Source: Christensenellaceae bacterium (GTDB lineage: Bacteria > Bacillota > Clostridia > Christensenellales > CAG-138). Taken from it: DNA of 64,000 nucleotides. Position numbers and translations under genes: made by a program. The notes below the pieces were generated by a model. The model worked only from the letters and a program-made list of their open reading frames with translations, did no database searches and was not told where the DNA came from. Shown here one piece after another: positions 8,111-28,968 of the stretch; the stretch's first letter is position 1, and each line of letters starts with the position of its first letter. The stretch is from the NCBI GenBank assembly GCA_963667195.1, contig OY762962.1:1048883-1112882 (forward strand), given 5' to 3'.

Positions 8111-9862
8111 ATGGCTTACCGCGCGCTCTACCGCCAATACCGCCCGACCCGCTTTGCCGATGTCATCGGGCAGGAGCACATCACAACCACACTGCGAAAT
8201 CAGGTGTCGTCGGATCGTCCGGCGCACGCCTATTTGTTCTGCGGCACGCGCGGCACGGGCAAAACCACCTCGGCGCGCATTCTGGCGCGCGCGGTCAACT
8301 GCCTCAGCCCCGAGGACGGCGAACCCTGCGGCAAATGCGAAGCATGTCTGATCACGGCAAGTGAGGGCGCTTCCGACATCACCGAGATCGACGCCGCGAG
8401 CAACAACAGTGTCAACGACGTGCGCGATCTCATCGAAAACGCGCAGTACGCGCCGCTCAATCTGCGCCGCCGCGTGTTCATCATCGACGAGGTGCATATG
8501 CTTTCGGGCGCGGCATTTAACGCGCTTCTTAAAACGCTTGAAGAGCCGCCGGAGCACATTCTCTTCATCCTCGCGACCACCGAGCCGCAGAAGCTGCCGG
8601 CTACGATCATCTCCCGCTGCCAGCGGTTCGATTTTCACCGGCTTTCAATGACAGACCTGAAAAAGACGCTCAAGAGCGTGCTGTCCCAGGCGGGCGCGTC
8701 GATCGAAGACGGCGGGCTCTCGCTGATTGCGCGCGCGGCGCAGGGCGGCATGCGCGATGCGCTGTCCCTCGCCGACCAGTGCCTCGCGTTCTGCGGAGAC
8801 AACGTGACCACGCAAAACGTCTACGACGTGCTGGGTAGCATGGAGGACGCGTTTTTATTCGATATGTCAAAGGCGCTGCTCGCCTCCAACGCACCGGACG
8901 CGCTGAGAAAGCTCGATTCCATCATGCAGGCGGGACGCGACCTTTCCGTCTTTGCCGCCGATCTCGCGGCGCATTTCCGCGCGCTGCTGCTGGCTAAGAC
9001 CTGCGGCAGATGCGAGGATTTATTGGACTGCACCGAGGACGAGATGACGCGCTATCTGGAGCAAGCCAAGGGTGCCTCCGAAGCGCGGCTGATGCTCGCG
9101 GTGGATCGCCTGATTGCGGCGCAAAACGACATGCGGTATCTGCCATCTCCACGCGCGCTGCTGGAAAGCGCGCTCATCCACATCTGCCGGCCGGAGGATT
9201 CCGTTTCGCTCGCGAATCTCGAATCGCGGCTCGACCGTCTGGAAGCGCAGATGAAGGATGGAATTCCGGCACAGGTTCCCGCAAAACAGAGCAGTGTGGA
9301 TGCACCTGCGGTGCAAGCCGCAAAGAAGGCGGAGCCAAAGCCCGCAAGGCAGGAACAGGCGCAGGACGAAGCCCCTTGGGCAGACCTGACCCCGCCGCCG
9401 GAAGATTGGCAGCCGGGCGAGACGTTTACCCCGCCTCCGCAGGAACCCGCGCCAAAGCCCGCGGCAACGCCCGCTCCCGCCGCAGCAAAGCACGAAACCA
9501 AACAGGAGGCGCACGCCGCCGCGCAGAAAGCAACGGCCGCGGCCGGTGCTTCCGGCGATCCCGCGGTGATCTGGCGCGAGGCGATTGCGAACATTCCCAA
9601 TATGTTCGTGCAGGCGCTGGCGAGGGAAGCGGTCGCTCTCCACTTTGAGCAAAACGCGCTGACGGTCGGATTCACCGAAGCGCAGGAGATGAAGCACAAG
9701 AGCCTTTCCGCGCCGATCAACTTTGAGCCGACACAGCGAGCATTGCAGATGGTCAAACCCGACGCAAAGCTCGTGATCACGACGACAAAAGCAGCCCCCG
9801 CAAGCGGACAGGCAGAAGAACTCGCCAAAGCGCTGTTCGGGGACAAACTCACGATACAGTAA
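8111..9862 (+). CDS. dnaX: DNA polymerase III subunit gamma/tau
   Basis: MAYRALYRQYRPTRFADVIGQEHI..., Walker A motif GTRGTGKTT and a zinc module CGKCEAC, with a Pro/Ala-rich linker; 583 aa. Confidence 0.95.
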   Translation: MAYRALYRQYRPTRFADVIGQEHITTTLRNQVSSDRPAHAYLFCGTRGTGKTTSARILARAVNCLSPEDGEPCGKCEACLITASEGASDITEIDAASNNSVNDVRDLIENAQYAPLNLRRRVFIIDEVHMLSGAAFNALLKTLEEPPEHILFILATTEPQKLPATIISRCQRFDFHRLSMTDLKKTLKSVLSQAGASIEDGGLSLIARAAQGGMRDALSLADQCLAFCGDNVTTQNVYDVLGSMEDAFLFDMSKALLASNAPDALRKLDSIMQAGRDLSVFAADLAAHFRALLLAKTCGRCEDLLDCTEDEMTRYLEQAKGASEARLMLAVDRLIAAQNDMRYLPSPRALLESALIHICRPEDSVSLANLESRLDRLEAQMKDGIPAQVPAKQSSVDAPAVQAAKKAEPKPARQEQAQDEAPWADLTPPPEDWQPGETFTPPPQEPAPKPAATPAPAAAKHETKQEAHAAAQKATAAAGASGDPAVIWREAIANIPNMFVQALAREAVALHFEQNALTVGFTEAQEMKHKSLSAPINFEPTQRALQMVKPDAKLVITTTKAAPASGQAEELAKALFGDKLTIQ

Positions 9863-9956
9863 CTGTAATTGTTATATAGTAAGTAAAGATAAATTCAGCA
9901 CGATACAGTAAATACAATAGTTAATAAGTAAAGATATTTTCAGGAGGAACTTTTTT

Positions 9957-10304
9957 ATGGCAAAAGGCGGATTTCCCGGCGGAATGGGCGGTATGGGCGG
10001 CGGCAACATGCAGCAGCTCATGATGAAAGCGCAGAAGATGCAGCAGGACGTGGCGCGCGCGCAGGCGGAGCTCAACGAGCGTGAGTTTGTCGCGAGCAGC
10101 GGCGGCGGCATGGTAACCGTCACCGTCACCGGCAACAAGGACGTGAAAGCCATCGTCATCAACCCCGCGTGCGTCGATCCCGACGACGTGGAGATGCTGC
10201 AAGACCTCGTGCTTAGCGCGGTCAACGAGGCACTCCGCACCGCGACCAAGACCGTTGAGGACGAAATCGGCAAGATCACGGGCGGTCTGGGGCTCGGCCT
10301 GTAA
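9957..10304 (+). CDS. ybaB: YbaB/EbfC family nucleoid-associated protein
   Basis: 115 aa with a Gly/Met-rich N-terminus and the canonical position between dnaX and recR. A GGAGG RBS precedes it. Confidence 0.9.
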
Positions 10305-15216: not shown

Positions 15217-16542
15217 TTATTGCGCATTGGTATTGATCAAGGGCAATATCTGCTCGATTGCCCCGGGCACCACGCTCACAATATCAATGCCGACGAACGT
15301 CGAACCACGCCGGTAGGTAAACAGCATCCCAATCACGCCGGTAGTCCCTTTTCGATCATCGAACCGATAGACGTAGCAATCTTGTCCCAAAACGGTTTCG
15401 CGGCTGAACGAGCCGTTCAGTACATCGACCTTGCCATCCTTGTCAAAGTCAAACAACCAAGGAAGAAGGGTGTCAAAGAAATCCCTGCCGGATACCGAGT
15501 CCATCCAGTTCCCGGTGGAATTCGCCGTGTAGATGAACACCATGTGCTGTATGTCTTTCTCGTAGCCGCAATACTCCAAGTCAAGATTGCCGTCCTTGAG
15601 AAAGTCCCGATATGCTTTGTTGCGCGCGTCCTCACCCGTCTCGCTCACAGTGACTTTGTTAAATTCGTCCAGCGTCTCGCGATTGTAGTATTCCCATCCA
15701 GCCGGACTGTCAAACTTCAGACCAAGGAACGCGCTGTCAAATCCTTTCTCTCCGATTTGCGGCATGCTGTAAGATTCGATGGAAGGATAGTCGCTGTATT
15801 GATAGAGGCTGTCGATCACATCCTGCAACATTTGTTCGCTCGGGCACATCAAATTGACATATGCAAACGTGCTATCCTTCTGAACGGCAAACAGCGCGCA
15901 ATAGCCGTATGCCGCATCCATGGGCAGTTCAAAGCGGGTCATCGGATGTTCGGTGTCTCCGAGCTTGATCGTATCCTTTCGAATATTCAACGCGTCGATC
16001 GTCCCGTCACTGCCAATGTCGCAAATCGAGGCAGCGTAGGCATCCACCGCTTCCTGTTCGGACAGAACCCCCGTTCCGTTATCCGAATTATCCTTGAGCA
16101 GGACGAGTATCATTTCGTTCGCGGATTTATTGTATCCAACATAATCATAGATGGTTTGTCCGTTCTTCAAGAGCGTTTGATATTCCTTTAAATACGCTTC
16201 CGCATTGCTCCCATCTGCCTTGATCATGTTTAGTAGATCGATATAGCTGCGATTGTAGGCCTTCCAACCATCGGGCAAGCGAAAGCCGAGGTCGAAATAC
16301 TTGCTCAAATAGCCAGTATCGTCACCTACACCCAATGAAAAGGAATCGACGTTCGGTTCCGGCGTTGGCGCGGGCGTCGGCGTTGGCGTGGGTGACGGTG
16401 TTGGCGTCGCGGTCGGCGTCGGACTTGGCGTCGGCGTAGGCGAAATCAGCTGCGCAAGGTCAGCGCAGCCAGTGAATGTAGCGAGCATGAATACCGCCAT
16501 CACCAGCGCGATGACGGTTTTGGTTCGATTGTACGTTTGCAT
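15217..16542 (-). CDS. lipoprotein with Pro/Thr linker and two tandem copies of an uncharacterised domain
   Basis: Start ATG at 16542 behind AAAGGAGAAAAA. Signal peptide and lipobox ...LATFTGC, with a PT-rich linker (about 16356-16446). Two homologous halves: FSLGVGDDTGYLSKYFDLGFRLPDGW... and GFDSAFLGLKFDSPAGW... Confidence 0.8.
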   Translation of the reverse strand: MQTYNRTKTVIALVMAVFMLATFTGCADLAQLISPTPTPSPTPTATPTPSPTPTPTPAPTPEPNVDSFSLGVGDDTGYLSKYFDLGFRLPDGWKAYNRSYIDLLNMIKADGSNAEAYLKEYQTLLKNGQTIYDYVGYNKSANEMILVLLKDNSDNGTGVLSEQEAVDAYAASICDIGSDGTIDALNIRKDTIKLGDTEHPMTRFELPMDAAYGYCALFAVQKDSTFAYVNLMCPSEQMLQDVIDSLYQYSDYPSIESYSMPQIGEKGFDSAFLGLKFDSPAGWEYYNRETLDEFNKVTVSETGEDARNKAYRDFLKDGNLDLEYCGYEKDIQHMVFIYTANSTGNWMDSVSGRDFFDTLLPWLFDFDKDGKVDVLNGSFSRETVLGQDCYVYRFDDRKGTTGVIGMLFTYRRGSTFVGIDIVSVVPGAIEQILPLINTNAQ

Positions 16543-16622: not shown

Positions 16623-17390
16623 TTATTTCACCACGTAGAAGGTCTTGAGAATTCCGTCGATGGTCGCGGGATCGACGGCGTCGATGATGATCATCGCAAA
16701 CGTTGTGCCCTGTTTGAGCACGAAGAACGCGCCGTTCATCTGCTTGCCGTTCGACTTCATGTCGTAGCGGTAGACGGGATGCTCCGTGCCGAGCAGATCG
16801 GTCACGACGAGCTTGAGGTTCTTCGCGTCGGATTTTGAATCGCCGTTGTAATCCGTCGCCCAAGTTTGCATCGCCTGCATGACCGCAAACTCGGTGTGCT
16901 GTGCCGATCCTTCGGAAGTGTAATCCAGCAAAATGATCATCATGTAATCATCGCCTTCATACGGCATCGCATAGAGATCATACACGAGCTTGCCCTGTTT
17001 GAGCATGTCGATGTATTCCTGAGTGATCACGGACGTGCTCTTTCCCGTCGTGTCGATTTCGTTCACGAGGTTCATCTGGTCCGGCGTATAGAGATACCAG
17101 TTATTCGGCGCGGGAAATCCGAAGCGGAAGTAGCTGTTGTAGTAACCATTCGGCCCGCCAAAGCCGAGCTTGAGAGAATCGACCGTCACCGCCGGAGTCG
17201 GACTCGGCGTAGGGCTCGGTGTGGGCGTGGGTGTCGGTGTCGGCGTCGGCGTCGGGGTCGGCGTCGCGGTCGGGGTTGCGGTCGGCGTCGGCGTTGGCGA
17301 AATTGCCTGCATGATCTCCGCGCAGGCGGTAAGCGACAGCATGCTCGCGAGCGCGAGCAGCAGCGCGATCGATCGGGTCAAGCGTTTCAT
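16623..17390 (-). CDS. lipoprotein paralog (single domain) with Pro/Thr linker
   Basis: RBS AGAGGAGAA, lipobox LSLTAC and a 36-aa (T/S)P linker. The domain begins LKLGFGGPNGYYNSYFRFGFPAPNNW. Confidence 0.8.
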   Translation of the reverse strand: MKRLTRSIALLLALASMLSLTACAEIMQAISPTPTPTATPTATPTPTPTPTPTPTPTPSPTPSPTPAVTVDSLKLGFGGPNGYYNSYFRFGFPAPNNWYLYTPDQMNLVNEIDTTGKSTSVITQEYIDMLKQGKLVYDLYAMPYEGDDYMMIILLDYTSEGSAQHTEFAVMQAMQTWATDYNGDSKSDAKNLKLVVTDLLGTEHPVYRYDMKSNGKQMNGAFFVLKQGTTFAMIIIDAVDPATIDGILKTFYVVK

Positions 17391-17427: not shown

Positions 17428-18171
17428 TCACGCTGTCATCGGCTGGAACATCGCGAGGAGCTCCGCCGTGTGATCCACGCCGACGGAGCTGACGTAGACG
17501 TTCATCATATAATCACCCTGTTGGAAGATGACCTGCGCGTCATACGTCGTGTATCCGCCGCTGTCGTAAGAGAAGAACCAACAGGACTGCTCTTTTCCAA
17601 GGAACATCGTCGTGGTGTGCTCGTCGCGCACGATCTCGGCTCCGGCACCGGTGAGCGCCTCGCGGATCAGCTTGATGTTCGCTTCGTGATAGTCCGCAAC
17701 GCTGCTAAACGCTGTCATCGCGTTCTTCGCGTCGCTGACGATAACGCTGATCTCCGCAAGCCCCGTGTTTAGGTGCGCGCTGTACTCCTGAACCGGCAGA
17801 CCCTTCGGCAGATAATCGAGGTATTCCGACTGGCGCAGATCCTTGGGAATCTCCATCGGGAAGCTGCTGAGGGTGTCCAGCTCGGCACTGGTGGCCACAA
17901 ACCATTTGTCGTTGAGATCGATTTTCATGTTGAAATACTCGTTTTGATAGGATAAACCCGTGCTCAATCCAAATGTGATCGGGTAGATTTCACGATAGGG
18001 TGTGGGGCTCGGCGTGGGCTCCGGCGTCGGCGTTGGCGCAAGGGTTGGCGTCGCCGTCGGCGTCGCGGTCGGCGTGGGTTCGATGATTGCCGTGATGCTT
18101 TGACAAGAGACAAGCGTGAACCCTGTGAGAATACACAACAGTAATGCGATGATTCTTTTTCGAAGCTGCAT
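17428..18171 (-). CDS. lipoprotein paralog (single domain) with Pro/Thr linker
   Basis: RBS GGGAGG, lipobox TLVSC and a PT linker. The domain begins ITFGLSTGLSYQNEYFNMKIDLNDKW. Confidence 0.8.
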   Translation of the reverse strand: MQLRKRIIALLLCILTGFTLVSCQSITAIIEPTPTATPTATPTLAPTPTPEPTPSPTPYREIYPITFGLSTGLSYQNEYFNMKIDLNDKWFVATSAELDTLSSFPMEIPKDLRQSEYLDYLPKGLPVQEYSAHLNTGLAEISVIVSDAKNAMTAFSSVADYHEANIKLIREALTGAGAEIVRDEHTTTMFLGKEQSCWFFSYDSGGYTTYDAQVIFQQGDYMMNVYVSSVGVDHTAELLAMFQPMTA

Positions 18172-18395: not shown

Positions 18396-19550
18396 TTATC
18401 GCTTTTGGGGTTGCCCGTTTGCTGAAAACAAAGCATCCGGGTTGATTCCAACGAAGGTCTTCATGATATCATAGTTGACCGAGACGATCTTGTCCCGAGA
18501 CAATAACAGGTTCATCTCTTTCAGCTCGTCGAGATCTCTCCGAATCGTGCGCTCGCTTTTTACCGAGGCGTAGATGGACTTTGCCAATACATCTGTTCTC
18601 TTTAGTATTGCGCTTTCTTCGATTCTTAAGTCAAACTTCATCATTACACTGATCAATGCGTGCTGCCTTTGCGAGATTTCTTTGGTCTGAAATTTTTCTT
18701 CCACATAGTTCATAAAGCAAATGCGCGAATACTCCTGCATCACCTTGTCGAAATTCGCTTGCAGTTCGGAGCAAAATCCGTTGAGCGAGAACAAGACGAA
18801 ACGCTGCAAGTTACCATTGTACTTGAATCTTGCTTCATCCAGTTGCGAAAAATACTCATCTCTGTTCTTATAGTAGAAATTTGACAGTGAAAAGAAGCTT
18901 GCCTTGTTGTAATTGCTGTTGTACAGAATACAGTCTTCCAGCATTCTGGACGTTCTGCCGTTTCCATCGGAAAACGGATGGATCGTAACAAGATAGAAAT
19001 GCGCAACCACTGCGCGGATCAACTCTCCCCACCCTTTGACGGTGTCTGAATTGATATATTGAATAAACGCTCGCATCTGCTCTGGAATGTGCTCAAACCG
19101 TTCTCCTTCAAAGTTATGCCCGACTTTGATCTTCTGCAATCGATACTGCCCGGGGACATTATCGTTCTGTTTCAAACTGTCAGTGAGGATTGCATGGAGC
19201 TTCTTGATCATTTCTTCTGTAACGCAGCACTCGCCCGCACCAATCTTCTCGTCGATGATCGCGCGAAGTGCGCGATATGCGTTATAGGTCTCTCTCTCCT
19301 CGGAATCCCTTGGCGTTTGTCCGCGAATGATATCCTCAACCGCTTCCTCCGAAAGCGTATTGCCCTCAATCCCAGTCGTTCCTTTTACCTGATGAATAAT
19401 CTGCAGCCGATTCAGCTCCGTGTGGAGGCGCACGGTCAGCGGCGCCTTTGACAGGGCATCCTTCAACGTATCGATTCTCGCATTTAGAGCCGCGAGCTCT
19501 GGATCGAGAAGATCGATTCCCGCATCATACTTTATCTTCCAATATGACAT
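18396..19550 (-). CDS. Fic/DOC family protein (putative AMPylase)
   Basis: Fic motif HPFSDGNGRTSR and the N-terminal inhibitory-type motif TTGIEGN. The ORF is open to 19562 (GTG); ATG at 19550 is preferred. Confidence 0.9.
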   Translation of the reverse strand: MSYWKIKYDAGIDLLDPELAALNARIDTLKDALSKAPLTVRLHTELNRLQIIHQVKGTTGIEGNTLSEEAVEDIIRGQTPRDSEERETYNAYRALRAIIDEKIGAGECCVTEEMIKKLHAILTDSLKQNDNVPGQYRLQKIKVGHNFEGERFEHIPEQMRAFIQYINSDTVKGWGELIRAVVAHFYLVTIHPFSDGNGRTSRMLEDCILYNSNYNKASFFSLSNFYYKNRDEYFSQLDEARFKYNGNLQRFVLFSLNGFCSELQANFDKVMQEYSRICFMNYVEEKFQTKEISQRQHALISVMMKFDLRIEESAILKRTDVLAKSIYASVKSERTIRRDLDELKEMNLLLSRDKIVSVNYDIMKTFVGINPDALFSANGQPQKR

Positions 19551-19661
19551 TGTTTTTGTCACTCCACTATTTTAATATTTTTCAATAATTACAAGCGTTT
19601 TATATAAATTACATTACATTTTGTCAATATATTTGTCAACACATTATGCACAACAATTTTG

Positions 19662-19737
19662 CAAAAAAAGCTCCTCCGAATGGAGGAGCTTTGCAGGTTG
19701 CGTTGGGTCGCGTTACGCGAACGCGTGATAGATGGCC
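19662..19737 (-). repeat. gene-proximal copy of the 76-bp repeat (functional lysC 3' end plus terminator)
   Basis: Contains the lysC stop codon and the perfect hairpin AGCTCCTCC-gaat-GGAGGAGCT, followed on the minus strand by T7. Confidence 0.85.
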
Positions 19738-21029
19738 TTGACCGCGGTGTTTAGGTCGTCGTTTTCGATGCCGACGATGATGTTCATCTCAGATGAACCC
19801 TGGTCGATCATGCGGACGTTGACGCCCGCCTCATAGAGCGAACCAAAGAGCCGCGCCGCGACGCCGAGCGAGCGAATCATGCCCTTGCCAACCGTGGCGA
19901 CGAGCGCCATGTTGGAATGCACCTCGATGCTCTGCGGCTCGCAGTCCCGCTGAATCTCGCGCAGCACCTGCTCGAGGTGTTCCTTGAGCTTGGTCTCCTG
20001 AATCACGAGGCTCATGGTGTCGATGCCGCTGGGCACATGCTCAAAGGAGATGTTGTAGCGATCCAGCACGCGCAGCAGGCGGTAGCCGAAGCCGACCTCG
20101 TTGTGCATGTTGTCCTTATACACGGTGATGACCGTGAATCCCTTGCGGCCGGCCACGCCGGTGAGCACGCCCTCGCGTTTGTAATACTTGAGGAACGCAT
20201 CCGGAATGACCATCGTGCCCTCGTCCTCCGGGCGGTTGGTGTTGCGCACATTGATCGGAATCTGCGCGCGGCGAACCGGGAAGATCGAATCCTCGTGCAG
20301 AACGGTCGCACCCATGTAGCTCAGCTCCCGCAGCTCGGAATACGTCACAACCGAGATGACCTTGGGGTTTTCGACGATGCGCGGGTCCGCCATGAGAAAT
20401 CCGCTCACGTCGGTCCAGTTTTCGTAGACGTCCGCCTGCACCGCGCGCGCCACAATTGCGCCCGTGATGTCGCTGCCGCCGCGGGAAAAGGTCTTGATGC
20501 TGCCGTCGCGCTTTCTGCCGTAGAAGCCGGGCACGACGACGTTCTGCGTTTCCGCGAGCTTTTGCGTCCACTTCTGCGTGGTCTCGTCGTCATAGGTGCC
20601 GTCCGCGTGGAAGCTGACAAGCTCCGCCGCGTCGTAGAAATCAAACCCCAGATAGTCCGCAAGCAGAAGCCCGCTGAGGTATTCTCCGCGGCTCGCGATA
20701 TAGTCCTCGCTGGCGCCGGAGAGGATGTTTTTCTTGATCGCCGCGAGTTCCAGCGAGATATTGGTCTTTAACCCCAGCTCTTTTTCGATGCCGACGTAGC
20801 GCTCCGTGATCTGCTCATACGTGTCGTCAAACGAAAGGCCGTTGGAGTTTTTTGCATAGCAAAGATACAGCAGGTCGGTAATCTTCTCATCGCCGGGGAA
20901 ACGTTTGCCCGGCGCGGAGGGTACGACGTACTTACGCGCCTTGTCGGCCAGAATGATATTCTTGACCTTTGTGAAGTTCTCGGCGTTGCAGAGGCTGGTT
21001 CCGCCGAATTTGACTGTTTTGACCGCCAT
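19713..21029 (-). CDS. lysC: aspartate kinase
   Basis: MAVKTVKFGGTSL..., an amino-acid kinase domain followed by two C-terminal ACT domains; 438 aa. Confidence 0.9.
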   Translation of the reverse strand: MAVKTVKFGGTSLCNAENFTKVKNIILADKARKYVVPSAPGKRFPGDEKITDLLYLCYAKNSNGLSFDDTYEQITERYVGIEKELGLKTNISLELAAIKKNILSGASEDYIASRGEYLSGLLLADYLGFDFYDAAELVSFHADGTYDDETTQKWTQKLAETQNVVVPGFYGRKRDGSIKTFSRGGSDITGAIVARAVQADVYENWTDVSGFLMADPRIVENPKVISVVTYSELRELSYMGATVLHEDSIFPVRRAQIPINVRNTNRPEDEGTMVIPDAFLKYYKREGVLTGVAGRKGFTVITVYKDNMHNEVGFGYRLLRVLDRYNISFEHVPSGIDTMSLVIQETKLKEHLEQVLREIQRDCEPQSIEVHSNMALVATVGKGMIRSLGVAARLFGSLYEAGVNVRMIDQGSSEMNIIVGIENDDLNTAVKAIYHAFA

Positions 21030-21106
21030 TGGTGTTCCCCCGTTTCTATGTTATGGCAATAGGACAAAAATCCCTACCGCCATGAGATACCAATCTGTGT
21101 GATTGC

Positions 21107-22432
21107 TTACTTCTTCTCCAGCGAGCGGCACTCGAGATAATAGCGCTTCTCGTTCGCTTCGCCCATGGAGAAGGTCTTTCTCGGCAGCGCGCCGTCGTAG
21201 ATGACAGTCGAGAAAAACTCGCTCTTCTTCAGCGCGGGCAGCAAGAATCCGATGGCCCCGCCCTTTTTCGCGAGCTCCTTGACCACGTCCGCGCCGTGGA
21301 TATAATCGACTTCACAACCGCAGATATCCTTGACCGCTTCGTCCAGCGCGGCTTGCAGTGTGCCGACCGCGAGCTGGGACGTCGGGCAGCTGACGATAAA
21401 CGCGCCCTCCACTTCACCCGTGATGAACGGAAGCACGTGCGTGTCTCCGCCCTGTGCGCAGGGCATACGCCCGAGTTCCACGCGCGCGCAGTCGTGCTTT
21501 TCCTTGAGCTTGCGAAGGATGGTCTCAATCGCGCGATTGCCGGAAGCTCCGAACACCACGCGGTGGATCGGCTCGAAGACGATGCCGTCGTCATGCACGT
21601 TTTCCACCTCGACCAGCGCATAGCGTGCGGGATGATCCGCACGTTCGCTTTCTGGCAAAGATTCCTTGATCTTTTCCCAGTTGGCCTTCGCGGTGGCAAA
21701 GCTGTGGTTGCCATCGCCCATGGCAAAGAGCATCGGCGCGCGATCGCCGTATTTTTTCGCGAAACGATCCGCATCCTTGAGGTCTCCCAGCGCGTTGAGC
21801 ACGCCGAGGATATCGTCCTCGCCATCCACGAGGTGGCCGGAAATATGGCCGCCGTCGAGCATGAGGTCGGTATCATAGAGCTTGGTCAGCTTCGCTTTTT
21901 TCAGCGCGAGCGGCTCGATAACCGTCTTTTCCGGGTCGTCGATCAGCACGAGGATGTGCGGCAGCTCGATGGGAGCGCCTTCGCGAATCTTGAGCCGCGG
22001 CGGAATGCGGGAGACAATCGTTCCCTCCGTCGCGCGGATCAGCGTGGTGGAACCCTTGGAGTAGTCGTATGCCTCGAGGTCCAGCGCCATCACGAGTCCG
22101 GTGCGGGTTGCCCCGCCGACCGTGCGGGTGACCAGCACGAAGCCCTGCGGCTTTTCTTCGAGAACGCCTTTATCGAGGTACTCGCGCATATGAGACTTGA
22201 TGCTCGCGATGCGCTCCTCTTCGCCGGGCTTTTCGAGGTATGCTTCCGGCAGGATCAGCTCCAGCGTGGACGGCGCTTTGCCGACGATGCGCTTTGCGTC
22301 TTCCCAGTACGAAGGCTGGGAGGTGAACTGGTCGCAGGCGACAACCGCCCATTTGTAGTAGTCGGTGCCTTTTTTCGGCAGTAATACGCGCGGCACCTGC
22401 ACCGCGACGTCGTTACGATACCGGTCTTCCAT
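21107..22432 (-). CDS. DUF1015 family protein
   Basis: 441 aa; the N-terminal segment ...VPRVLLPKKGTDYYKWAVVACDQFTSQPSYW... is typical of DUF1015 (recollection). Confidence 0.8.
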   Translation of the reverse strand: MEDRYRNDVAVQVPRVLLPKKGTDYYKWAVVACDQFTSQPSYWEDAKRIVGKAPSTLELILPEAYLEKPGEEERIASIKSHMREYLDKGVLEEKPQGFVLVTRTVGGATRTGLVMALDLEAYDYSKGSTTLIRATEGTIVSRIPPRLKIREGAPIELPHILVLIDDPEKTVIEPLALKKAKLTKLYDTDLMLDGGHISGHLVDGEDDILGVLNALGDLKDADRFAKKYGDRAPMLFAMGDGNHSFATAKANWEKIKESLPESERADHPARYALVEVENVHDDGIVFEPIHRVVFGASGNRAIETILRKLKEKHDCARVELGRMPCAQGGDTHVLPFITGEVEGAFIVSCPTSQLAVGTLQAALDEAVKDICGCEVDYIHGADVVKELAKKGGAIGFLLPALKKSEFFSTVIYDGALPRKTFSMGEANEKRYYLECRSLEKK

Positions 22433-22538
22433 AGTCTTTCTTACCCCTCTTACACTTTGTTATTTATGGTCTGCCGCATCCGGTCGCTCCTCCGGTTGCT
22501 AAGCGGCATAGTTCCGCTGTTATAAACGTAATGCGGGT

Positions 22539-22567
22539 ATTATACCTTATATTTTTTTTGCTTTCAA
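22539..22567 (-). promoter_or_regulatory. sigma-70-type promoter for DUF1015-lysC
   Basis: On the minus strand: TTGAAA (22567-22562), a 17-nt spacer, then TATAAT (22544-22539). Confidence 0.55.
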
Positions 22568-22648
22568 TAATATCTGTCGCAATTTCGGACGTTTTGCAGA
22601 TTTATTCGATATATCTGCATATTACGCAAAACATATGTCGAAAACCCT

Positions 22649-22693
22649 TTATTCTCCGAGCGTTGCGACCATGACTGCCTTGATCGTATGCAT
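22649..22693 (-). repeat. displaced copy of the argF 3' end (last 14 codons plus stop)
   Basis: 42/45 identical to 22734-22778. Both copies translate to [14 protein letters not shown]. The three differences are all synonymous (GCA/GCG, CTC/CTG, GAA/GAG). Confidence 0.85.
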
Positions 22694-22701
22694 GCACTTC
22701 T

Positions 22702-22726
22702 ATATATATTTTTTTAAAATATATAT
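22702..22726. repeat. perfect all-A/T palindrome between the two argF 3'-end copies
   Basis: ATATATATTTT-ttt-AAAATATATAT (11-bp arms). Confidence 0.85.
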
Positions 22727-22733
22727 CTATAAA

Positions 22734-23717
22734 TTACTCTCCCAGCGTTGCGACCATGACCGCCTTGATCGTATGCATACGATTCTCCGCCTCGTCAAAC
22801 ACCACGCTGTGCTTCGAGCGGAACACCTCATCGCTGGCTTCCATCTCGCGGAGCCCGTATTTTTCGAAGATCTCTCTGCCGACAACCGTCTCCAGATCGT
22901 GGAAGCTCGGCAGGCAGTGCAGAAACAGCGCGTCCGGGTTACCGGTCTTCTGGAGCAAGTCCAGCGTCACGCGGTACGGCTCCAGCAGCTTGATTCGTTC
23001 CGCAAACTGCGCTTCCTCACCCATGGACACCCAAACGTCGGTGTACACCGCGTCCGCGCCGCGCACCGCGTCGAGAGATTCCGAAAACTCGATCACCGCA
23101 CCCGTGGATTTGGCGAGCTCCCGCATCCGCGCGGTCAGGCCCTCTTCCGGCCAGAGCGCGCGCGGGGCAATCGCTGTAAACTTCATGCCCATCTTCGCGG
23201 AGCCGATCATCAGCGAATTTCCTATGTTGTTGCGCGCGTCGCCGACATAGCACAAGTGAATCTCCTTCAGCGGCTTTTTCGCGTGCTCCTCGATGGTCAT
23301 GAAGTCCGCAAGAATCTGCGTCGGATGGTCGGTGTCGGTGAGCCCGTTCCAAACCGGCACGCCGGAGTAGCGCGCGAGGTCTTCCACGATCTGCTGACCG
23401 AATCCGCGGTACTCGATCGCGTCATAATAGCGACCCAGCACCTTCGCCGTGTCTTCCAGAGACTCCTTCTTGCCCATCTGGCTGTTGCTCAGATATGTCA
23501 CATGCGCGCCTTCGTCCAGCGCCGCAACCTCAAACGCGCAGCGGGTGCGCGTGCTGGTCTTGTCGAAGATCAGCACGATGTTCTTGTGCTTGAGGCGTTC
23601 GGGAAACACGCGCTCGCGCTTTTCGCGCTTGAGCGCGTGGCTCAGGTCGAGCAAGTAGCGAATCTCTTCGGGGGAATAATCGAGCAGGGTTAAAAAGCTT
23701 CTTCCGCGCAGGTTCAT
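22734..23717 (-). CDS. argF: ornithine carbamoyltransferase
   Basis: STRTR and HCLP motifs, with a GGAGG RBS upstream of the ATG at 23717; 327 aa. The position next to arcA suggests a catabolic (arcB-like) role. Confidence 0.95.
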
Positions 23718-23759
23718 AACTTCCTCCAAAAACTGTTATTCTGTTGTAATCTAGGGTTT

Positions 23760-24356
23760 TTATCTGAGTTTCATCAGTTCTTCTTTGACACCATCGATAT
23801 ATAACTCGTAGGACAGCCCGTCCTCTTGATAGGTACCCACATAATAGGTAAGCCCGTTGTAGGTAAACGCGGTTTCAAACACCGTTCCCTTGTTGTCCGT
23901 AATCGTCGCCGGGTTTCGATCCGTTTGCGCCATCGTGACCTGCACAAATCGCTCCTGCGTGCGCTGGTCTCCGCGGATGATTGCGCTGACGGCGTCCGAG
24001 AGCGCGTTTTCACGGCTGATATAGGTGGGACTCACGAGATAGAAGCGCCCGTTTTCCTTGTGTAATATGTCGCTAGAGCGATTGGACAGCACAAACGCGC
24101 TGTCTTCGCTCTCGATGGTGTACGAAAAATCCGCCGCACCGTATTGGTAATCGGTCGCCTGCACTGCGGTCGCAAAACCGCCGAACTCGTTTTCAAACGG
24201 CCACTGGTACAGAAACACGCCGACCACGAGAGCCGCCGCGCACGCAGACACGATGAAAAACGCACGCCGGAGCGCAAACGTATGCCGAAACACGGGAACC
24301 AGGATGAATGGAGACGCGAGCACAATCGCGATGAGGATTCGAATCAAGTCGTACAT
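23760..24356 (-). CDS. hypothetical membrane-anchored protein
   Basis: 198 aa with two N-terminal TM segments followed by a soluble domain. The RBS is weak and the start lies only ~20 nt after the upstream terminator's T-run. Confidence 0.5.
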   Translation of the reverse strand: MYDLIRILIAIVLASPFILVPVFRHTFALRRAFFIVSACAAALVVGVFLYQWPFENEFGGFATAVQATDYQYGAADFSYTIESEDSAFVLSNRSSDILHKENGRFYLVSPTYISRENALSDAVSAIIRGDQRTQERFVQVTMAQTDRNPATITDNKGTVFETAFTYNGLTYYVGTYQEDGLSYELYIDGVKEELMKLR

Positions 24357-24374
24357 GAAGGCAAACCTTTACTT

Positions 24375-24410
24375 TAAAAAATTAGGCAGGGGTATTCACA
24401 AATTGCCTAA
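24375..24410 (-). terminator. rho-independent terminator downstream of arcA and its repeat array
   Basis: On the minus strand: TTAGGCA-(15 nt)-TGCCTAA followed by TTTTTT. Confidence 0.65.
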
Positions 24411-24453
24411 CAACATTTTACCACAAATGAAAACGCAGTTTTCTTAGTAAACC

Positions 24454-24555
24454 TTTACTCTCTCCAGAGCGGCATGCTCATCTGCCATTTTATGGGCAAT
24501 CGCGTTTACTCCCGCCAGAGCGGCATACTCATCTGCCATTTAATGGGCAGTCGCG
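24454..24555 (-). repeat. two tandem 51-bp units, each containing a copy of the last 8 codons plus stop of arcA
   Basis: Units 24454-24504 and 24505-24555. The first 28 nt of each match 24556-24583 (25/28 and 28/28) and all translate MSMPLWRE*. The remaining 23 nt (ctgccattt[t/a]atgggca[a/g]tcgcg) hold a CTGCC/GGCAG inverted repeat. Confidence 0.9.
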
Positions 24556-24556
24556 T

Positions 24557-25765
24557 TTACTCCCGCCAGAGCGGCATACTCATACAGCGGGGACCGCCGC
24601 GCCCGCGCGAAAGCTCCGCCGAGGGAATCTCGTGCACGACGACTCCGTTGTCACGGAGGATGCCGTTTGTCACATAGTTGCGCGAAAAGGCGATCACCTC
24701 GCCCGGCGCCACCGCGAGGGTGTTCGTGCCGTCGTTCCACTGCTCCCGCGCGGCGTCGATTGCGCTCGCGCCGCCGCAGTGAATCATCGTCACCTTCTCC
24801 ACGTGCAGCGCGTCCGCCAGCGACTCGGCAAGCTTTCGCTTCTCCTGCTCGATGACCAGCGCGCCGCCCTGTTTCGTGAGCGAAAACGTGCGCACGGCGG
24901 GCAAGATCGACGGATGAATCGTGAACTTATCCACGTCCACCATGGTCATCACGGTGTCGAGGTGCATATAGGATCGCGTCTTGGGAATATCGATGGCGAG
25001 CACCTTGACGATGCCCGTCTCCTCGCAGATGAGCCTGCGCGCAAGCGCCTCCACCGCGTGGGGATCGGTGCGCTGCGAAATGCCGACCGCGACCACCTCC
25101 GGCGAGAGCACGAGCACATCCCCGCCTTCGATGGAAAACGGATCGGTGCGCATGTGCAGCATCGGCGTCTGCTGATAGAGCGGGTGGTGTATAAAGAGAT
25201 ATTGCCCAAACAGCGTTTCCCGCGCGCGCACGGTGTTCGCCATGCTGGAGATGCAGACCCCGCCGTCCACCATGAAGAACGGATCGCGCGTGAAATAGAG
25301 GTTCGGCATGGGATCAACGAAGAATGGATACGCGTCGTCGATATAATCCACGAGGTGAACAGGTTCCCGGCTGCCCAGATCGCTCTTGCGCACGCCGCGC
25401 ACCATGCTCGAGAGCATCTGCGGCACGGACTGTCCCAAGAGATATTCCCGCACGCGCTGCTCCACTCCACGGGCAGATATGCCAATTTCCGCGATATAAT
25501 CCTCCACAAATCGTTCCTGCACGGCGGTCTCCGTCAACGCTTCCGCCACGAGATCCAACAGATAGCAGACCTCCACCCCGCAGGAGCGCAGGGTTGCGGC
25601 AAACTGATCGTGCTCCTCGCGGGCATGCACGAGATACGGGATATCCTCGAACAGTTGGCGGGAGAGGTATTGCGGCATGAGGTTTTCCAGCTCCTGCCCC
25701 GGTCGGTGCAGCAGCACGCGCCTGAGTTTGCCTACCTCGCTCTTGACCCGAATGGGTGAATCCAT
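24557..25765 (-). CDS. arcA: arginine deiminase
   Basis: N-terminus ...VKSEVGKLRRVLLHRPGQELENL... and C-terminal catalytic region GGPRCMSMPLWRE; 402 aa. Confidence 0.95.
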   Translation of the reverse strand: MDSPIRVKSEVGKLRRVLLHRPGQELENLMPQYLSRQLFEDIPYLVHAREEHDQFAATLRSCGVEVCYLLDLVAEALTETAVQERFVEDYIAEIGISARGVEQRVREYLLGQSVPQMLSSMVRGVRKSDLGSREPVHLVDYIDDAYPFFVDPMPNLYFTRDPFFMVDGGVCISSMANTVRARETLFGQYLFIHHPLYQQTPMLHMRTDPFSIEGGDVLVLSPEVVAVGISQRTDPHAVEALARRLICEETGIVKVLAIDIPKTRSYMHLDTVMTMVDVDKFTIHPSILPAVRTFSLTKQGGALVIEQEKRKLAESLADALHVEKVTMIHCGGASAIDAAREQWNDGTNTLAVAPGEVIAFSRNYVTNGILRDNGVVVHEIPSAELSRGRGGPRCMSMPLWRE

Positions 25766-26014
25766 GCAGTTCCTCCTGACAGGGGTTATTCAACACATCT
25801 TTGCTGTTTGTCGATCAGTTCACGCGTATAAAACGCGCTTGATCCTCGTTTGTTCAAACGGCGATTCCGCAGGATATCTCGCTTTTTGAACGCATACACC
25901 TATTCTATCAGGAATTTTATGCATTGTGTGAAAATACCGCAAATATATGATTCTCCGCTCAGAAAACGCGCAAAACAAAAGCCGCGCGATTGCGCGGCTC
26001 TTTATCAAATCACA

Positions 26015-26641
26015 TTATCGAATGAAGTTTGTCATGACGCGTTTTTCGTCCTCCGGCAGCGGCACGGTGTCCTTGCCCGCCTCGATGAGCTTGAGGAGCC
26101 AAGCCATGCAGCGTGCGTTCTTCACGAGCGTCTGCATGCCCTCGCCGTCGCCTTCCACCTCGCCCTTTTCACGCCCGTACGCAATCGTCCAATACTGCGA
26201 CGGCGGAATCACCGTCTGCGCGAGATTGAGGTAGTTGTTGAGCTGGTGGACGACGTCCACCCCGCCCGCGCGGCGCACCACGGCGCAGCTTGTTGCCACC
26301 TTCAGGCGAAAATAGCGCGAGCTTGAATAAAACACGCGATCCAGGAATGACTTCATCGTGCCGGGAATTCCCGCGTAATACGTCGGGCAACCGAGGATAA
26401 AGCCATCCGCGTCACGCATCTTTTGCGCAACCTCGTTTACCAGATCGTCCGCAAAGACACATTTGTTTCCTTCGGATTTGGCGCAATGTCCGCAGGCGAT
26501 GCACCCGTGGATGCTCTGCTTGCCGATCTGGATGGTCTCGGTCTCGATGCCCTGCCGCTCCAGCTCGTCCGTCATTGCGCGGAGCGCCATGGTTGTGTTG
26601 CCGTTTGTACGCGGGCTGCCGTTGATTGCGATCACTTTCAT
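26015..26641 (-). CDS. flavodoxin-like fold NAD(P)H-dependent FMN reductase / iron-sulfur flavoprotein
   Basis: MKVIAINGSPRTNGNT... plus the Cys cluster HGCIACGHC; 208 aa. Confidence 0.8.
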   Translation of the reverse strand: MKVIAINGSPRTNGNTTMALRAMTDELERQGIETETIQIGKQSIHGCIACGHCAKSEGNKCVFADDLVNEVAQKMRDADGFILGCPTYYAGIPGTMKSFLDRVFYSSSRYFRLKVATSCAVVRRAGGVDVVHQLNNYLNLAQTVIPPSQYWTIAYGREKGEVEGDGEGMQTLVKNARCMAWLLKLIEAGKDTVPLPEDEKRVMTNFIR

Positions 26642-26683
26642 CTTGTGCGCTCCTTTTCTTTCGGTCGGTGGTTTTGTTTGGAA

Positions 26684-27250
26684 TCAGTTCAGCGGAAACG
26701 CGGAGATCTCGTCTCCCGTGACCATGAACGCGCTGCGCGCGAGCTTCGCCAGCGGGGTGTCGCTCTTGCTGTCGGAATAAAAGCCGTCGATCTGTGTTTC
26801 CGGCTCCGCTTCCCGCATGCGGCGCACCTTCTCCTCGCCGTGGCAATTCAAGCCCTCGTAAACACCCGTCTCGGGCACAACGCGCGAGGCGATCAGCGCG
26901 AGTCCCAGCCGATTCATCAGCGGCTCCAGTAAAAACTCCGGCGAGGCGGAGATGATTAGATCATCCTCCCGCTTCTGCGCAAAGTACCAATCCTTGAGGT
27001 TCTTGTCGTGCGTGAGCCAGAAGCGCTCCACCTCTTCGCGCACGTCCGGCACATGCCGAAGGTAGCGATAGAAGCGCTGCTTCACGCGGGTTTTATCCGC
27101 AAGCCCAAGCAGCATTGCGGCAAACCAGGGAGCGGCCGCAACCGCGCTAAGATAGGCGCGCGGAAATTTCGCCGCGCAGTGGCGAAAGAAATCCACGCTG
27201 GAATCCCCGCGATAGATCGTATTGTCAAAATCGTAGACGTTTCTCAGCAA
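26684..27250 (-). CDS. HAD superfamily hydrolase (subfamily IB-like)
   Basis: DxDxT motif YDFDNTIY near the N-terminus and a C-terminal Asp motif; 188 aa. Confidence 0.75.
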   Translation of the reverse strand: MLRNVYDFDNTIYRGDSSVDFFRHCAAKFPRAYLSAVAAAPWFAAMLLGLADKTRVKQRFYRYLRHVPDVREEVERFWLTHDKNLKDWYFAQKREDDLIISASPEFLLEPLMNRLGLALIASRVVPETGVYEGLNCHGEEKVRRMREAEPETQIDGFYSDSKSDTPLAKLARSAFMVTGDEISAFPLN

Positions 27251-27327
27251 GCATTGCCCTTTCCCGGTTTGGCCCGTATTGCTCCGGTCACCTCTTGGTT
27301 TTCGTTTTGTGTGCGACGCTCTCGTTA

Positions 27328-27999
27328 TTAGCAGATGCCGCAGTTGCCGGGATCGTTGAGTACCAGCTCCGGCACGCGCTTCGCGTCTCCCGTGATGCAG
27401 GTGGCGCCCGCGGCGAGAATCTCCTCCACCGAACGGAATCCCCAGTTGACGGAGACACAGCGCATGCCCGCGTTGTGCGCGAACTGCACGTCCACATCGG
27501 AATCCCCGACATAGACGGACTCCTCCGGCGTGACCCCGAAGAAGTTCATGATGAAGCGCAGCGCGTCCGGCGCGGGCTTGATGGCAAACTTGTCCATCCG
27601 CCCAAGCACCATGGAGAACAAATCCTTGGGATAGAGCGTTTCAATCACCTTCACGGTGTCCGTGTGTGGCTTATTGGAAGCGATGGCGACAGTGACGCCC
27701 GCGGCTTTGATCGCCTCGACTGCCTCAACCATGCCGTCGTAGGGATGCGAGCGGTCGAGGCTGTGCTCCTTATAGTGCGCCATATAGAGCTCCAGCACCT
27801 TACCCGATTGATCCTTCGCTTCCGGCGGCACGGCGTGCTCGCACATATAGTTGACGCTGTGGCCGACGATGGCGGCAACGCGCGACTCGGACAGCGCGGG
27901 AAAGCCACACGCCGCAAGCGCGTAGTTCAGGCTGTTGGTAAGGTCATGGAGGGTGTTGACGAGCGTTCCGTCAAGGTCGAATACGCAGAGTTTAACCAT
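27328..27999 (-). CDS. HAD family phosphatase (phosphoglycolate phosphatase-like)
   Basis: VFDLDGTLVNT, SNK and GDSDVD motifs; 223 aa. Confidence 0.85.
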   Translation of the reverse strand: MVKLCVFDLDGTLVNTLHDLTNSLNYALAACGFPALSESRVAAIVGHSVNYMCEHAVPPEAKDQSGKVLELYMAHYKEHSLDRSHPYDGMVEAVEAIKAAGVTVAIASNKPHTDTVKVIETLYPKDLFSMVLGRMDKFAIKPAPDALRFIMNFFGVTPEESVYVGDSDVDVQFAHNAGMRCVSVNWGFRSVEEILAAGATCITGDAKRVPELVLNDPGNCGIC

Positions 28000-28074
28000 G
28001 TTGCTTTTTACTATCCTTCTCGCTTAGTGCAAATCGTTCTAATCTAAAACATCCTGCGCCCAAGGCGCAAAACC

Positions 28075-28968
28075 TTATAGTCCCATCAAAATGCCAAACT
28101 GTCCAAGTACGACCAGCAGGGTTCCGAACACGGTTGCGCCGGGTTGCTTTTCCTTTTGAAAGATGCGCGCAAAGAGCATCACAAACACGCTCGTGAGCAC
28201 GCCGACGGGAGCAAGCTGGCTCATGTCTCCGCGCAGGGAGGCAAAGTAGGTTGCGGCATAGCTCCCCGCGAGGAACACCGCGGCAAAGAGCACGCCAAAC
28301 CACGCACGTGGGGTAAAGTCCTTGATCGTCTGCTGCTTTTTGCGCAGGAACACGAAAATCCAGAGGAAAACCGAGGCAAACGCCGCGCGCCAGAACTCGA
28401 ACACCTGAGAATTAAACGCCTCGCCCAGCATGCCGCGGCGCAGGAGCTGGGACCCCGCCGTCGCGAGCAGCGCAATTACCGCGTAGAGAAACCAAAGCTG
28501 GCTCTGAATCTGCTGGGAGCTGCTCTCGATAAACACGATGCCGAGCAGGATTAAGACCATGCAGCAGATCTTCCAAAGCCCCATCGGCGCACCAAAGAGA
28601 AAATGCGACACGGCGAGCGTCACGAGCGACGAGACCAGATAGACGGGCATCACCTTGCTCACCTTGCCGCCCGTGAGCGCGGTAAAGAGGCTCAGCCAGG
28701 CCAGCGCGGAGAGGAAGCCGCAGACCGCGATCCAGACAAACTGTAGCACGCTGAGCGCAAGCAGTCCCGCAAATCCGCCCGTGAGAAAGACATAGCCCGC
28801 AGAGGCAACCGTCAAAAGCAGCGCAAACAACGCAGACGCCGCGGAAGGGTCCGCGCGCTTTGCCGCGCTGCGAATCCAGCTTGGCACGCCGCCGAGCAGA
28901 ATCGTACTCGCCAGCGCGAGCGCAATCCAGATCAAGAGATTGCGGATTGCCAATGGGTCGATATCCAT
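28075..28968 (-). CDS. DMT/EamA-like transporter
   Basis: 297 aa with about 10 TM segments in two-halves symmetry. Confidence 0.65.
   Translation of the reverse strand: MDIDPLAIRNLLIWIALALASTILLGGVPSWIRSAAKRADPSAASALFALLLTVASAGYVFLTGGFAGLLALSVLQFVWIAVCGFLSALAWLSLFTALTGGKVSKVMPVYLVSSLVTLAVSHFLFGAPMGLWKICCMVLILLGIVFIESSSQQIQSQLWFLYAVIALLATAGSQLLRRGMLGEAFNSQVFEFWRAAFASVFLWIFVFLRKKQQTIKDFTPRAWFGVLFAAVFLAGSYAATYFASLRGDMSQLAPVGVLTSVFVMLFARIFQKEKQPGATVFGTLLVVLGQFGILMGL

Follow-up and report, generated by a model that had tools for sequence, protein, structure and literature searches.

Displacement of gene 3' ends (C-terminal displacement) yields strings of orphaned 3' regions; it has been proposed for rhs loci and for the effector-immunity arrays of type VI secretion, and was suggested to proceed via homology-facilitated illegitimate recombination (PMC5361080, and Jackson et al. 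2009 as cited there on displacement). Here we analysed a related structure in a Christensenellaceae bacterium (GCA_963667195.1, contig OY762962.1, positions 1,048,883-1,112,882 of the forward strand; these 64,000 nt are the window, to which positions refer unless another locus is named), in which the end of arcA, the arginine deiminase (ADI) gene, is repeated behind the gene in a 51-bp tandem array. We favour, with moderate confidence, the reading that this array is a copy-number-variable minisatellite straddling the arcA stop codon, into which a gene 3' end displaced by recombination has turned.

The array at the arcA stop codon and its variation among relatives

The 3' end of arcA reads ATG AGT ATG CCG CTC TGG CGG GAG TAA (MSMPLWRE*), and this end, ATGAGTATGCCGCTCTGGCGGGAGTAA, reappears 51 and 102 nt further 3' with hairpin spacers of 24 nt in between (Table 1). 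The last 27 nt of arcA are denoted G and the 24-nt stem-loop spacer S, numbered from the gene outwards. Tandem Repeats Finder reported a single array (24454-24583; period 51, 2.5 copies, 93% matches, 0 indels), i.e., head-to-tail copies as in a minisatellite, and none of 100 dinucleotide-preserving shuffles contained any match to the 27-nt arcA end. The array had been noticed by an earlier reader who saw only the letters (the sequence-only reading), with the unit divided into 28 + 23 nt; this division is equivalent but shifted by one base, the natural one being 27 + 24 nt. The description of the copies given there is borne out: the middle copy is identical to the gene end, the distal copy G3 differs from it by three nucleotide changes (AGT>AGC and the arginine codon switch CGG>AGA) that are all synonymous and leave MSMPLWRE* unaltered, and the spacer holds an inverted repeat (CTGCC-N8-GGCAG in S1, with the arm TTGCC in S2). 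The form of the array is G(SG)n and not (GS)n, since resident downstream DNA follows the last G; in single-copy relatives G is joined straight to the resident tail and S is absent.

The window was compared with 80 genome loci and 80 metagenome loci encoding ADI relatives, together with the contigs of three close homologues. About 20 related Christensenellaceae-like genomes (gut and digester Clostridia) have the G and S architecture behind arcA, in one to at least four copies; the spacer in these relatives is S-like and 23-27 nt long, and the next gene end opens at the same ATGAG. Two copies are present in L003, L005, L007, L029, L057, L093, L095 and L117, three in the window, L002, L016, L022 and L024, four in L100, and at least two to three in L006 and L083/L090, whose contigs terminate within the array. 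Unit boundaries are the same in all array lineages, and the unit is 50, 52 or 54 nt long in some of them. Whole-chromosome or megabase-contig records hold both states (three copies in L002, two in L007, one in L009 and L015), so the array as a class is no assembly artefact; because short-read contigs end inside repeats (L006 and L083/L090, and L003 inside the spacer behind its carbamoyltransferase gene), copy numbers from such assemblies are lower bounds. Counting the 51-bp unit in other strains had been suggested in the sequence-only reading, and the count does vary among relatives (1, 2, 3, 4 or at least 3 copies), the array being neither confined to this assembly nor invariant. Arrays precede three different neighbours (the gene for a 198-aa membrane protein, the ornithine carbamoyltransferase gene, or the promoter of a DUF1015 gene), and the repeat thus travels with the arcA end and not with the sequence that follows.

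L089 encodes an ADI 99% identical to that of the window (about 94% nucleotide identity) and has one gene end, ATGAGT...TGGAGAGAGTAA, followed by the window's tail, exactly 102 bp (two units) being missing. It belongs to a shallow cluster in which L089, L084, L018 and L081/L082 are single-copy and the window, L057, L093 and L083 carry arrays. In the ADI tree the arrays are scattered within one large subclade, with a further case (L095) in a neighbouring clade. About half of the clade's lineages, including L089, have no S at all, and an S-like sequence stands directly 3' of the stop codon in the single-copy lineages L008, L021 and L032. Among loci of more distant taxa, about 600 kb in total, no arcA duplication straddling the stop codon was detected. 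Judged from these alignments, copy number appears to change quickly.

The arrays are polar: gene-proximal units are intact, and the distal G and S are degenerate in L001, L004, L016, L019, L020 and L022 (nonsense codons, lost start codons and frameshifts), so that, as in displacement, the oldest remnant lies distally and decay rises with distance from the gene. In the window's array G3 is the oldest copy. Its AGAGAG form, the usual one among distal copies, also occurs in the distal copy of L057, L100 and L004 (L093 has one further change, GGAGAG) and as a remnant in L001 and L019-L022, and it is the working gene end in the single-copy lineages L089, L018 and L081. The distal copy of L095 shares its TAG stop and the flank behind it with L031, a single-copy relative, and the piece that L095 has in addition is the proximal unit. 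An orphaned old end behind DNA that single-copy alleles lack, the arrangement that displacement leaves, was thus found at arcA, and it was found at the carbamoyltransferase gene as well.

The differences between copies are biased towards synonymous ones. In 17 arrays, 40 nucleotide differences in codons of the copies kept the codon synonymous (stop-to-stop changes included) and 14 did not, the expected synonymous share being 17-26% for random substitution and 30-41% if the working copy adds synonymous changes of its own; put the other way, 26% of the differences alter the peptide, where neutral decay of non-coding copies would give at least about 60-70%. The recurrent synonymous variants (AGT/AGC, CCG/CCA, CTC/CTG, CGG/AGA, GAG/GAA and TAA/TGA/TAG) also segregate among the working arcA ends of other lineages, and a CGN/AGA arginine switch is found within the body of arcA itself (24587-24589, compared with L089). 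Start codons are kept in nearly all intact downstream copies (ATG in 21 of 23, TTG in one), and in arrays that keep the arcA stop every intact copy retains a stop codon, in any of the three forms. The simplest reading of these patterns would be that the copies still serve, or served until recently, as working gene ends; having been repeatedly exposed to selection on the enzyme, they would carry mostly synonymous alleles already in circulation. Third-position identity of G equals the expectation from its two Met codons and one Trp codon, and the same is seen in single-copy lineages; nucleotide-level selection on G was rejected, its third positions being no more conserved than those in the rest of arcA.

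From the synonymous-only divergence the sequence-only reading had argued against slippage. It was right in that the copies behave as former functional ends (the 40 against 14 above), but duplication in place has occurred too: L024 has two spacers of the same sequence, which is unlike that of spacers in other genomes, two are identical in L100, and L016 shows the pattern S1-S2-S1. With identical lineage-specific spacers inside arrays, slippage or unequal crossing-over is part of the story. Identity among spacers is 0.85 within genomes and 0.77 between them, and several units are closer to units of other genomes.

Table 1. Features of the arcA and carbamoyltransferase region in the window
Feature	Positions	Strand	Sequence and basis
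arcA, arginine deiminase, 402 aa	24557-25765	-	protein end ...GGPRCMSMPLWRE*; translation and Pfam ADI domains in homologues
G1, working gene end	24557-24583	-	ATGAGTATGCCGCTCTGGCGGGAGTAA, 8 codons and TAA; sequence and repeat search
S1, first spacer	24533-24556	-	ACGCGACTGCCCATTAAATGGCAG; arms CTGCC 24546-24550 and GGCAG 24533-24537
G2, second gene-end copy	24506-24532	-	27/27 identical to G1
S2, second spacer	24482-24505	-	ACGCGATTGCCCATAAAATGGCAG; differs from S1 at 2/24 positions
G3, distal gene-end copy	24455-24481	-	ATGAGCATGCCGCTCTGGAGAGAGTAA; 24/27 identical to G1
Extended -10-like motif	24415-24425	-	TGTGGTAAAAT; TGTGRTARAAT, at a fixed distance to the start codon in 17 loci
Hairpin and T-run	24376-24410	-	TTAGGCA-N15-TGCCTAA; 7-bp stem, 15-nt loop
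Predicted membrane protein, 198 aa	23760-24356	-	no Pfam match; separates arcA from the carbamoyltransferase gene
Ornithine carbamoyltransferase gene (arcB/argF type)	22734-23729	-	Pfam OTCace_N and OTCace
Carbamoyltransferase working end, 45 nt	22734-22778	-	ATGCATACG...GGAGAGTAA; whole-window repeat search
Carbamoyltransferase spacer, 40 nt	22694-22733	-	AT-only palindrome TATATATATTTT/AAAATATATATA; palindromes of other sequence in L002, L018 and L093
Displaced carbamoyltransferase end copy, 45 nt	22649-22693	-	followed by resident downstream sequence

Proposed displacement of gene ends and the competing explanations

In the history that we favour, recombination in an ancestor of the clade would have put a new gene end with a short hairpin 3' flank before the resident end and left a 27-nt remnant of the old end downstream, a type of event that has been attributed to homology-facilitated illegitimate recombination. 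The comparison of relatives shows that the resulting direct repeats grow and shrink by unequal homologous recombination or slippage, with one to at least four copies, identical lineage-specific units and the exact 102-bp loss in a near relative as the outcome. Contraction would promote a downstream copy, or a chimera, to the working end. Collapse to a single copy is irreversible by unequal crossing-over; since G flanks the insert on both sides, recombination with single-copy alleles could rebuild the array on a fresh end, with G serving as the right-hand homology. Copies that remain distal decay, as is seen in the relatives, and the gene-end copies themselves would need no function.

Two observations bear on recombination in these genes. 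The closest relative of the window's arcA switches along the gene in sliding-window best matches: L084 reaches 0.99 identity at codons ~226-275 and falls outside the top four near codons 50-125 (0.75-0.76 or less). This mosaic (against L084, L089 and L093) indicates frequent recombination between lineages. In addition, the last 120 nt of the window's carbamoyltransferase gene group with the spacer-bearing L018 and L002 and not with the usual nearest relative. Together, the arcA mosaic and this grouping show that recombination is active here.

The carbamoyltransferase gene has a displaced end of its own, located 85 nt 3' of the working end and differing from it at 3 of 45 positions, all synonymous (GCG>GCA, CTG>CTC and GAG>GAA). 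The same arrangement is found in L002, L018 and L093, where the distal remnant has decayed (amino-acid changes, nonsense codon), and independent versions occur in L015 (at least 64 nt duplicated) and L117 (a 112-nt spacer with a GC hairpin), so that at least three independent spacer types exist among the relatives. None of these spacers shares sequence with S. The best reading is that the same process left displaced ends behind both genes.

Several points weigh against this history. No donor lineage with arcA, S and then another sequence was identified among the compared loci, and sliding-window best matches showed, for neither the window nor L095, an imported tract that ends at G; for an imported tract at the arcA 3' end in general, best-match windows and clade-by-clade third-position profiles gave no clear signal. 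In those profiles, identity at the 3' end of arcA, next to the array, does not rise specifically in pairs that carry arrays, and the gene-proximal S is identical at 22-24 of 24 positions between clades that agree at only about 62% of the adjacent synonymous sites. The synonymous bias is no longer significant if each distinct variant type is counted once (13 against 12, P=0.19 under the most generous null). Collapse to one copy looks frequent (four of the eight lineages of the shallow cluster), yet arrays persist across a deep clade, and neutral turnover alone fails to explain this persistence. Finally, a survey of the window and about 50 related loci found a stop-straddling duplication at no genes other than arcA and that of the carbamoyltransferase, and the restriction to two genes of one operon could point to function rather than history.

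These points lead to the main rival, to which we assign a low but appreciable probability: S would be a selected 3' untranslated region (3'-UTR) hairpin or cis-regulatory module that, perhaps with the decoy ends or 8-codon mini open reading frames (ORFs), acts on the arc operon transcript. It might be a 3'-end stabiliser or processing site, or the copies might be termination-reinitiation pads, with repeat number tuning the effect. Gene-proximal S has a mean identity of 0.78 compared with 0.62 at synonymous sites, and reaches 24/24 across clades; by this measure the S next to the gene is conserved beyond neutral expectation. With no array-specific arcA tract transferred along with it, selection on S would fit better than recent horizontal re-seeding. 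In 21 spacers the pairing of the hairpin is kept by two compensated pairs (C-G to U-A and C-G to G-C), and L095 has a hairpin of other arm sequence, CTGAG/TTCAG. The retained start and stop codons of the intact copies would suit such a module, as would the presence of the architecture at both arc genes and nowhere else in the sampled sequence and the persistence of arrays despite frequent collapse. About half of the lineages, however, including the relative with the 99%-identical ADI, do without S, distal copies decay as described, unit length varies between 50, 52 and 54 nt, and the carbamoyltransferase spacers are unrelated to S. No Shine-Dalgarno sequence precedes the mini-ORF start codons in the array, and no Rfam family matched positions 24370-24600 at E up to 1. 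A stable RNA structure was rejected, because folding of the whole array is only marginally better than that of shuffles (z = -2.3) and single units fold no better than shuffles. A small role of the hairpin, e.g., as a 3'-UTR mRNA-end or stability element, is possible on present sequence comparisons but unproven.

Other functional candidates for the repeat were tried and rejected. A second reading frame from the ATG inside S is contradicted by variants that are non-synonymous in that frame (judged by hand), a sigma-54 promoter over the S/G junction by a GG-to-GC spacing of 11 and not 10 nt (our own comparison with the consensus), and an arginine-repressor box in S by an arm spacing 2 bp too long (likewise compared by us with the published consensus). 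A known RNA family was rejected as well, the only Rfam matches being two sub-threshold Leu-leader matches upstream of arcA. In L024 (4183-4300) the arcA stop codon has changed to GAA and the ORF continues into the spacer and the next repeat, and C-terminally extended ADI proteins after stop loss are found in P0102 (429 aa) and P0085 (409 aa); in-frame read-through as a selected feature was rejected, since units of 50, 52 and 54 nt exist and L024 and P0085 have merely lost the stop. A type III toxin-antitoxin repeat array does not agree with the variable downstream gene (membrane protein, carbamoyltransferase or DUF1015), and a CRISPR (clustered regularly interspaced short palindromic repeats) array does not agree with spacers that are 22/24 identical and homologous across genomes.

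Plain slippage, i.e., a single ancient tandem duplication followed by neutral copy-number drift without displacement or inter-lineage recombination, is in our view rather unlikely. The head-to-tail units without indels, the equal unit boundaries in all lineages and the identical units within some arrays are what it would produce, and the S-like flank of the single-copy lineages L008, L021 and L032 suggests that S is the native 3' flank of arcA; but the tail after the last G is not S and is the same tail as in single-copy relatives, as expressed by the form G(SG)n. Drift of this kind also does not account for the low peptide-altering share (26% and not at least about 60-70%), for distal copies with alleles typical of other lineages' working ends, or for the carbamoyltransferase duplications, whose spacers are non-homologous and whose boundaries differ.

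A further proposal, which we regard as unlikely and speculative, combines the stop-proximal hairpin and the decoy gene end into one entity, either a selected device of the arc operon, having arisen or been kept at both genes, that might determine what becomes of the intercistronic transcript and be tuned by the number of repeats, or a passive self-propagating insertion, possibly spreading between diverged genomes via the ultra-conserved coding flanks on both of its sides. If the passive version were true, it would represent a new way for non-coding DNA to be mobile.

Some integrative elements target the 3' ends of genes and accrete together with defective relatives, e.g., at fda in Streptococcus thermophilus. 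The sequence-only reading had proposed such serial accretion at an attachment (att)-like site: a site-specific recombinase would integrate small elements at the arcA 3' end, each bringing a replacement end. The part of this proposal that stands is that old ends were displaced and the newest adjoins the gene, in line with the polar arrays with the oldest copy distal, the synonymous differences and the imperfect inverted repeat with an 8-nt centre in S. As an att site of an integrative element the locus was rejected, and the explanation is very unlikely. No recombinase was found by Pfam among the ten neighbouring ORFs (18396-28968), whose products by Pfam include carbamoyltransferase, DUF1015, aspartokinase-like, Fic, FMN reductase, HAD and EamA proteins; the "element" between the G repeats would be 24 nt only, without cargo; and the carbamoyltransferase gene has duplicated lengths that vary (45 to at least 64 nt) and unrelated spacers. 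Distant copies are lacking too. S was absent elsewhere in the window at up to 3 mismatches, neither the window nor about 40 related loci of 7 kb each yielded a further G or S when 6 mismatches were allowed, and a covariance model of S run over 357 kb of related sequence matched only in arcA arrays, so that S, for which a genome-wide search had been suggested in the sequence-only reading, is not dispersed; a dispersed family like the repetitive extragenic palindromic (REP) elements was rejected, as S lies only behind arcA in these ~357 kb and the window. There was no G in viral contigs and no match in phage and plasmid collections, and four matches to a 19-mer of S in viral contigs are due to chance, their flanks and GC content being unrelated.

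Least probable is an operator array, in which a protein would bind the palindrome S (TGCC-N-ATAAAAT-GGCA), recurring at 51-bp intervals, and so control a promoter after the array: the loop is as conserved as the stem, 51 bp would amount to about five helical turns and place the sites on one face of the DNA, and a conserved promoter-like motif lies about 30 nt past the array, but S is found nowhere else, including upstream of arcA and at other arc promoters, the downstream region is of three different kinds, the period is 50 to 54 nt in some lineages, and the arm spacing does not fit the published arginine-box consensus (our own comparison).

The surrounding region

Between arcA and the carbamoyltransferase gene the window has the gene for the 198-aa predicted membrane protein; in other lineages the carbamoyltransferase gene or the DUF1015 gene follows arcA directly. 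A motif of the TGTGGTAAAAT type is present in all 17 loci sharing the 198-aa downstream gene, and its position suggests that it is the probable promoter of that gene. The hairpin that directly follows the motif (Table 1) is conserved with changed arms, its T-run is found only in the window, L057 and L089, and a terminator scan did not call it. The sequence-only reading had taken this hairpin (24375-24410) for the real terminator of arcA, which is now doubtful; a role as the 5' leader hairpin of the 198-aa gene is no less likely. As this stretch is likelier to be a promoter with a leader hairpin, arcA has no obvious intrinsic terminator of its own.

Downstream of the carbamoyltransferase gene, a near-consensus promoter (TTGAAA-17-TATAAT), preceded by a palindrome TGCAGATATATCGAATAAATCTGCA, is located upstream of the DUF1015 gene (21107-22432) at 22539-22619 on the minus strand. 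The block of promoter and TGCAGATATATCGAATAAATCTGCA is highly conserved (e.g., in L010, L016, L020 and L001) and follows arcA or the carbamoyltransferase gene depending on the genome, which suggests a shared operator.

Upstream of arcA, between it and the FMN-reductase gene (25941-26027), sub-threshold Rfam Leu-leader matches were obtained on both strands (E about 0.01, 27 bits compared with a gathering threshold of 50); the GC-rich hairpin with a T-run located there is most probably a simple terminator. Two relatives, L011 (1540-1658) and L027 (2193-2379), have tandem repeats of 52-59 nt 5' of arcA, with a sequence unrelated to the array studied here.

All close homologues of the window's ADI (93% identity and below) carry Pfam ADI domains, and the catalytic-Cys motif GGPRCMSMPLWRE is present at the C-terminal end. 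The nearest ADI proteins come from Christensenellaceae-like Clostridia known from metagenomes. An exact-protein look-up returned no identical record, and a search of the literature on Christensenellaceae and arginine deiminase found nothing relevant.

Two other kinds of repeat occur in the window. At 9850-9948 on the plus strand, two AT-rich direct repeats of ~49 nt (CACGATACAGTAA...GTAAAGATA) stand just upstream of a small gene starting at 9958 and may represent the duplication of a regulatory region. The hexamer CGGCGT forms long runs at 16360-16442, 17193-17299 and 18009-18075, which would give Thr-Pro repeats on the minus strand and are probably low-complexity linkers in three consecutive minus-strand ORFs.

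Implications and comparison with known systems

If the displacement history is true, the locus would be a miniature record of gene-end replacement by recombination in uncultured anaerobes, in which displaced ends are datable remnants that later become an unstable repeat. Copy number could be used as a strain marker for Christensenellaceae-like bacteria. For annotators and assemblers some caution is advisable, because the arrays break contigs and loss of the first stop codon extends the enzyme into the repeat (as in L024). More generally, synonymous-only differences in non-coding repeats can stem from exchange with a selected copy, so the pattern is no proof of translation or of site-specific integration. 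The conserved hairpin and the restriction to two genes of one pathway are the part that could hide real regulation.

With CRISPR the array shares pattern only (a repeat-spacer layout of 27 + 24 nt in which the newest units lie at one end and the terminal repeat is degenerate), whereas its spacers are versions of one sequence, its repeat is a protein-gene end, and it follows arcA in all genomes examined. Like REP elements and bacterial interspersed mosaic elements (BIMEs), S is a small imperfect palindrome that immediately follows a stop codon inside an operon and may act at the 3' end of the mRNA, but in contrast to them it is not dispersed, being found only behind arcA in the window and about 357 kb of related sequence. 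Integrative elements that target 3' ends likewise produce gene 3'-end direct repeats with synonymous differences and, possibly, serial addition; the arcA locus differs in having no recombinase, no cargo and, in mobile-element collections, no attP-like copy, with only 24 nt between repeats.

The closest likenesses are to two other systems. As in minisatellites, head-to-tail units of tens of bp vary in copy number between close relatives, with some sign of homogenisation, terminal units that diverge more than the others and contigs broken within the array (L006, L083); different from them, the arcA unit holds a stop codon and the last 8 codons of a gene, the differences between units are biased towards synonymous ones, and the array is retained across a deep clade, with a sister gene behaving alike. 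As in the displacement proposed for rhs and type VI secretion loci, recombination with its anchor in the conserved portion upstream would bring in a new end, the far junction being illegitimate, and the previous end is kept downstream as an orphan in polar strings with the oldest distal; in contrast, the displaced ends here comprise only 27-45 nt and encode the same peptide, so that no new function is swapped in, the gene is that of a catabolic enzyme and not of a polymorphic toxin, and the remnants grow and shrink in place. By these comparisons the arcA array is a variant of 3'-end displacement combined with a minisatellite, both of them known kinds.

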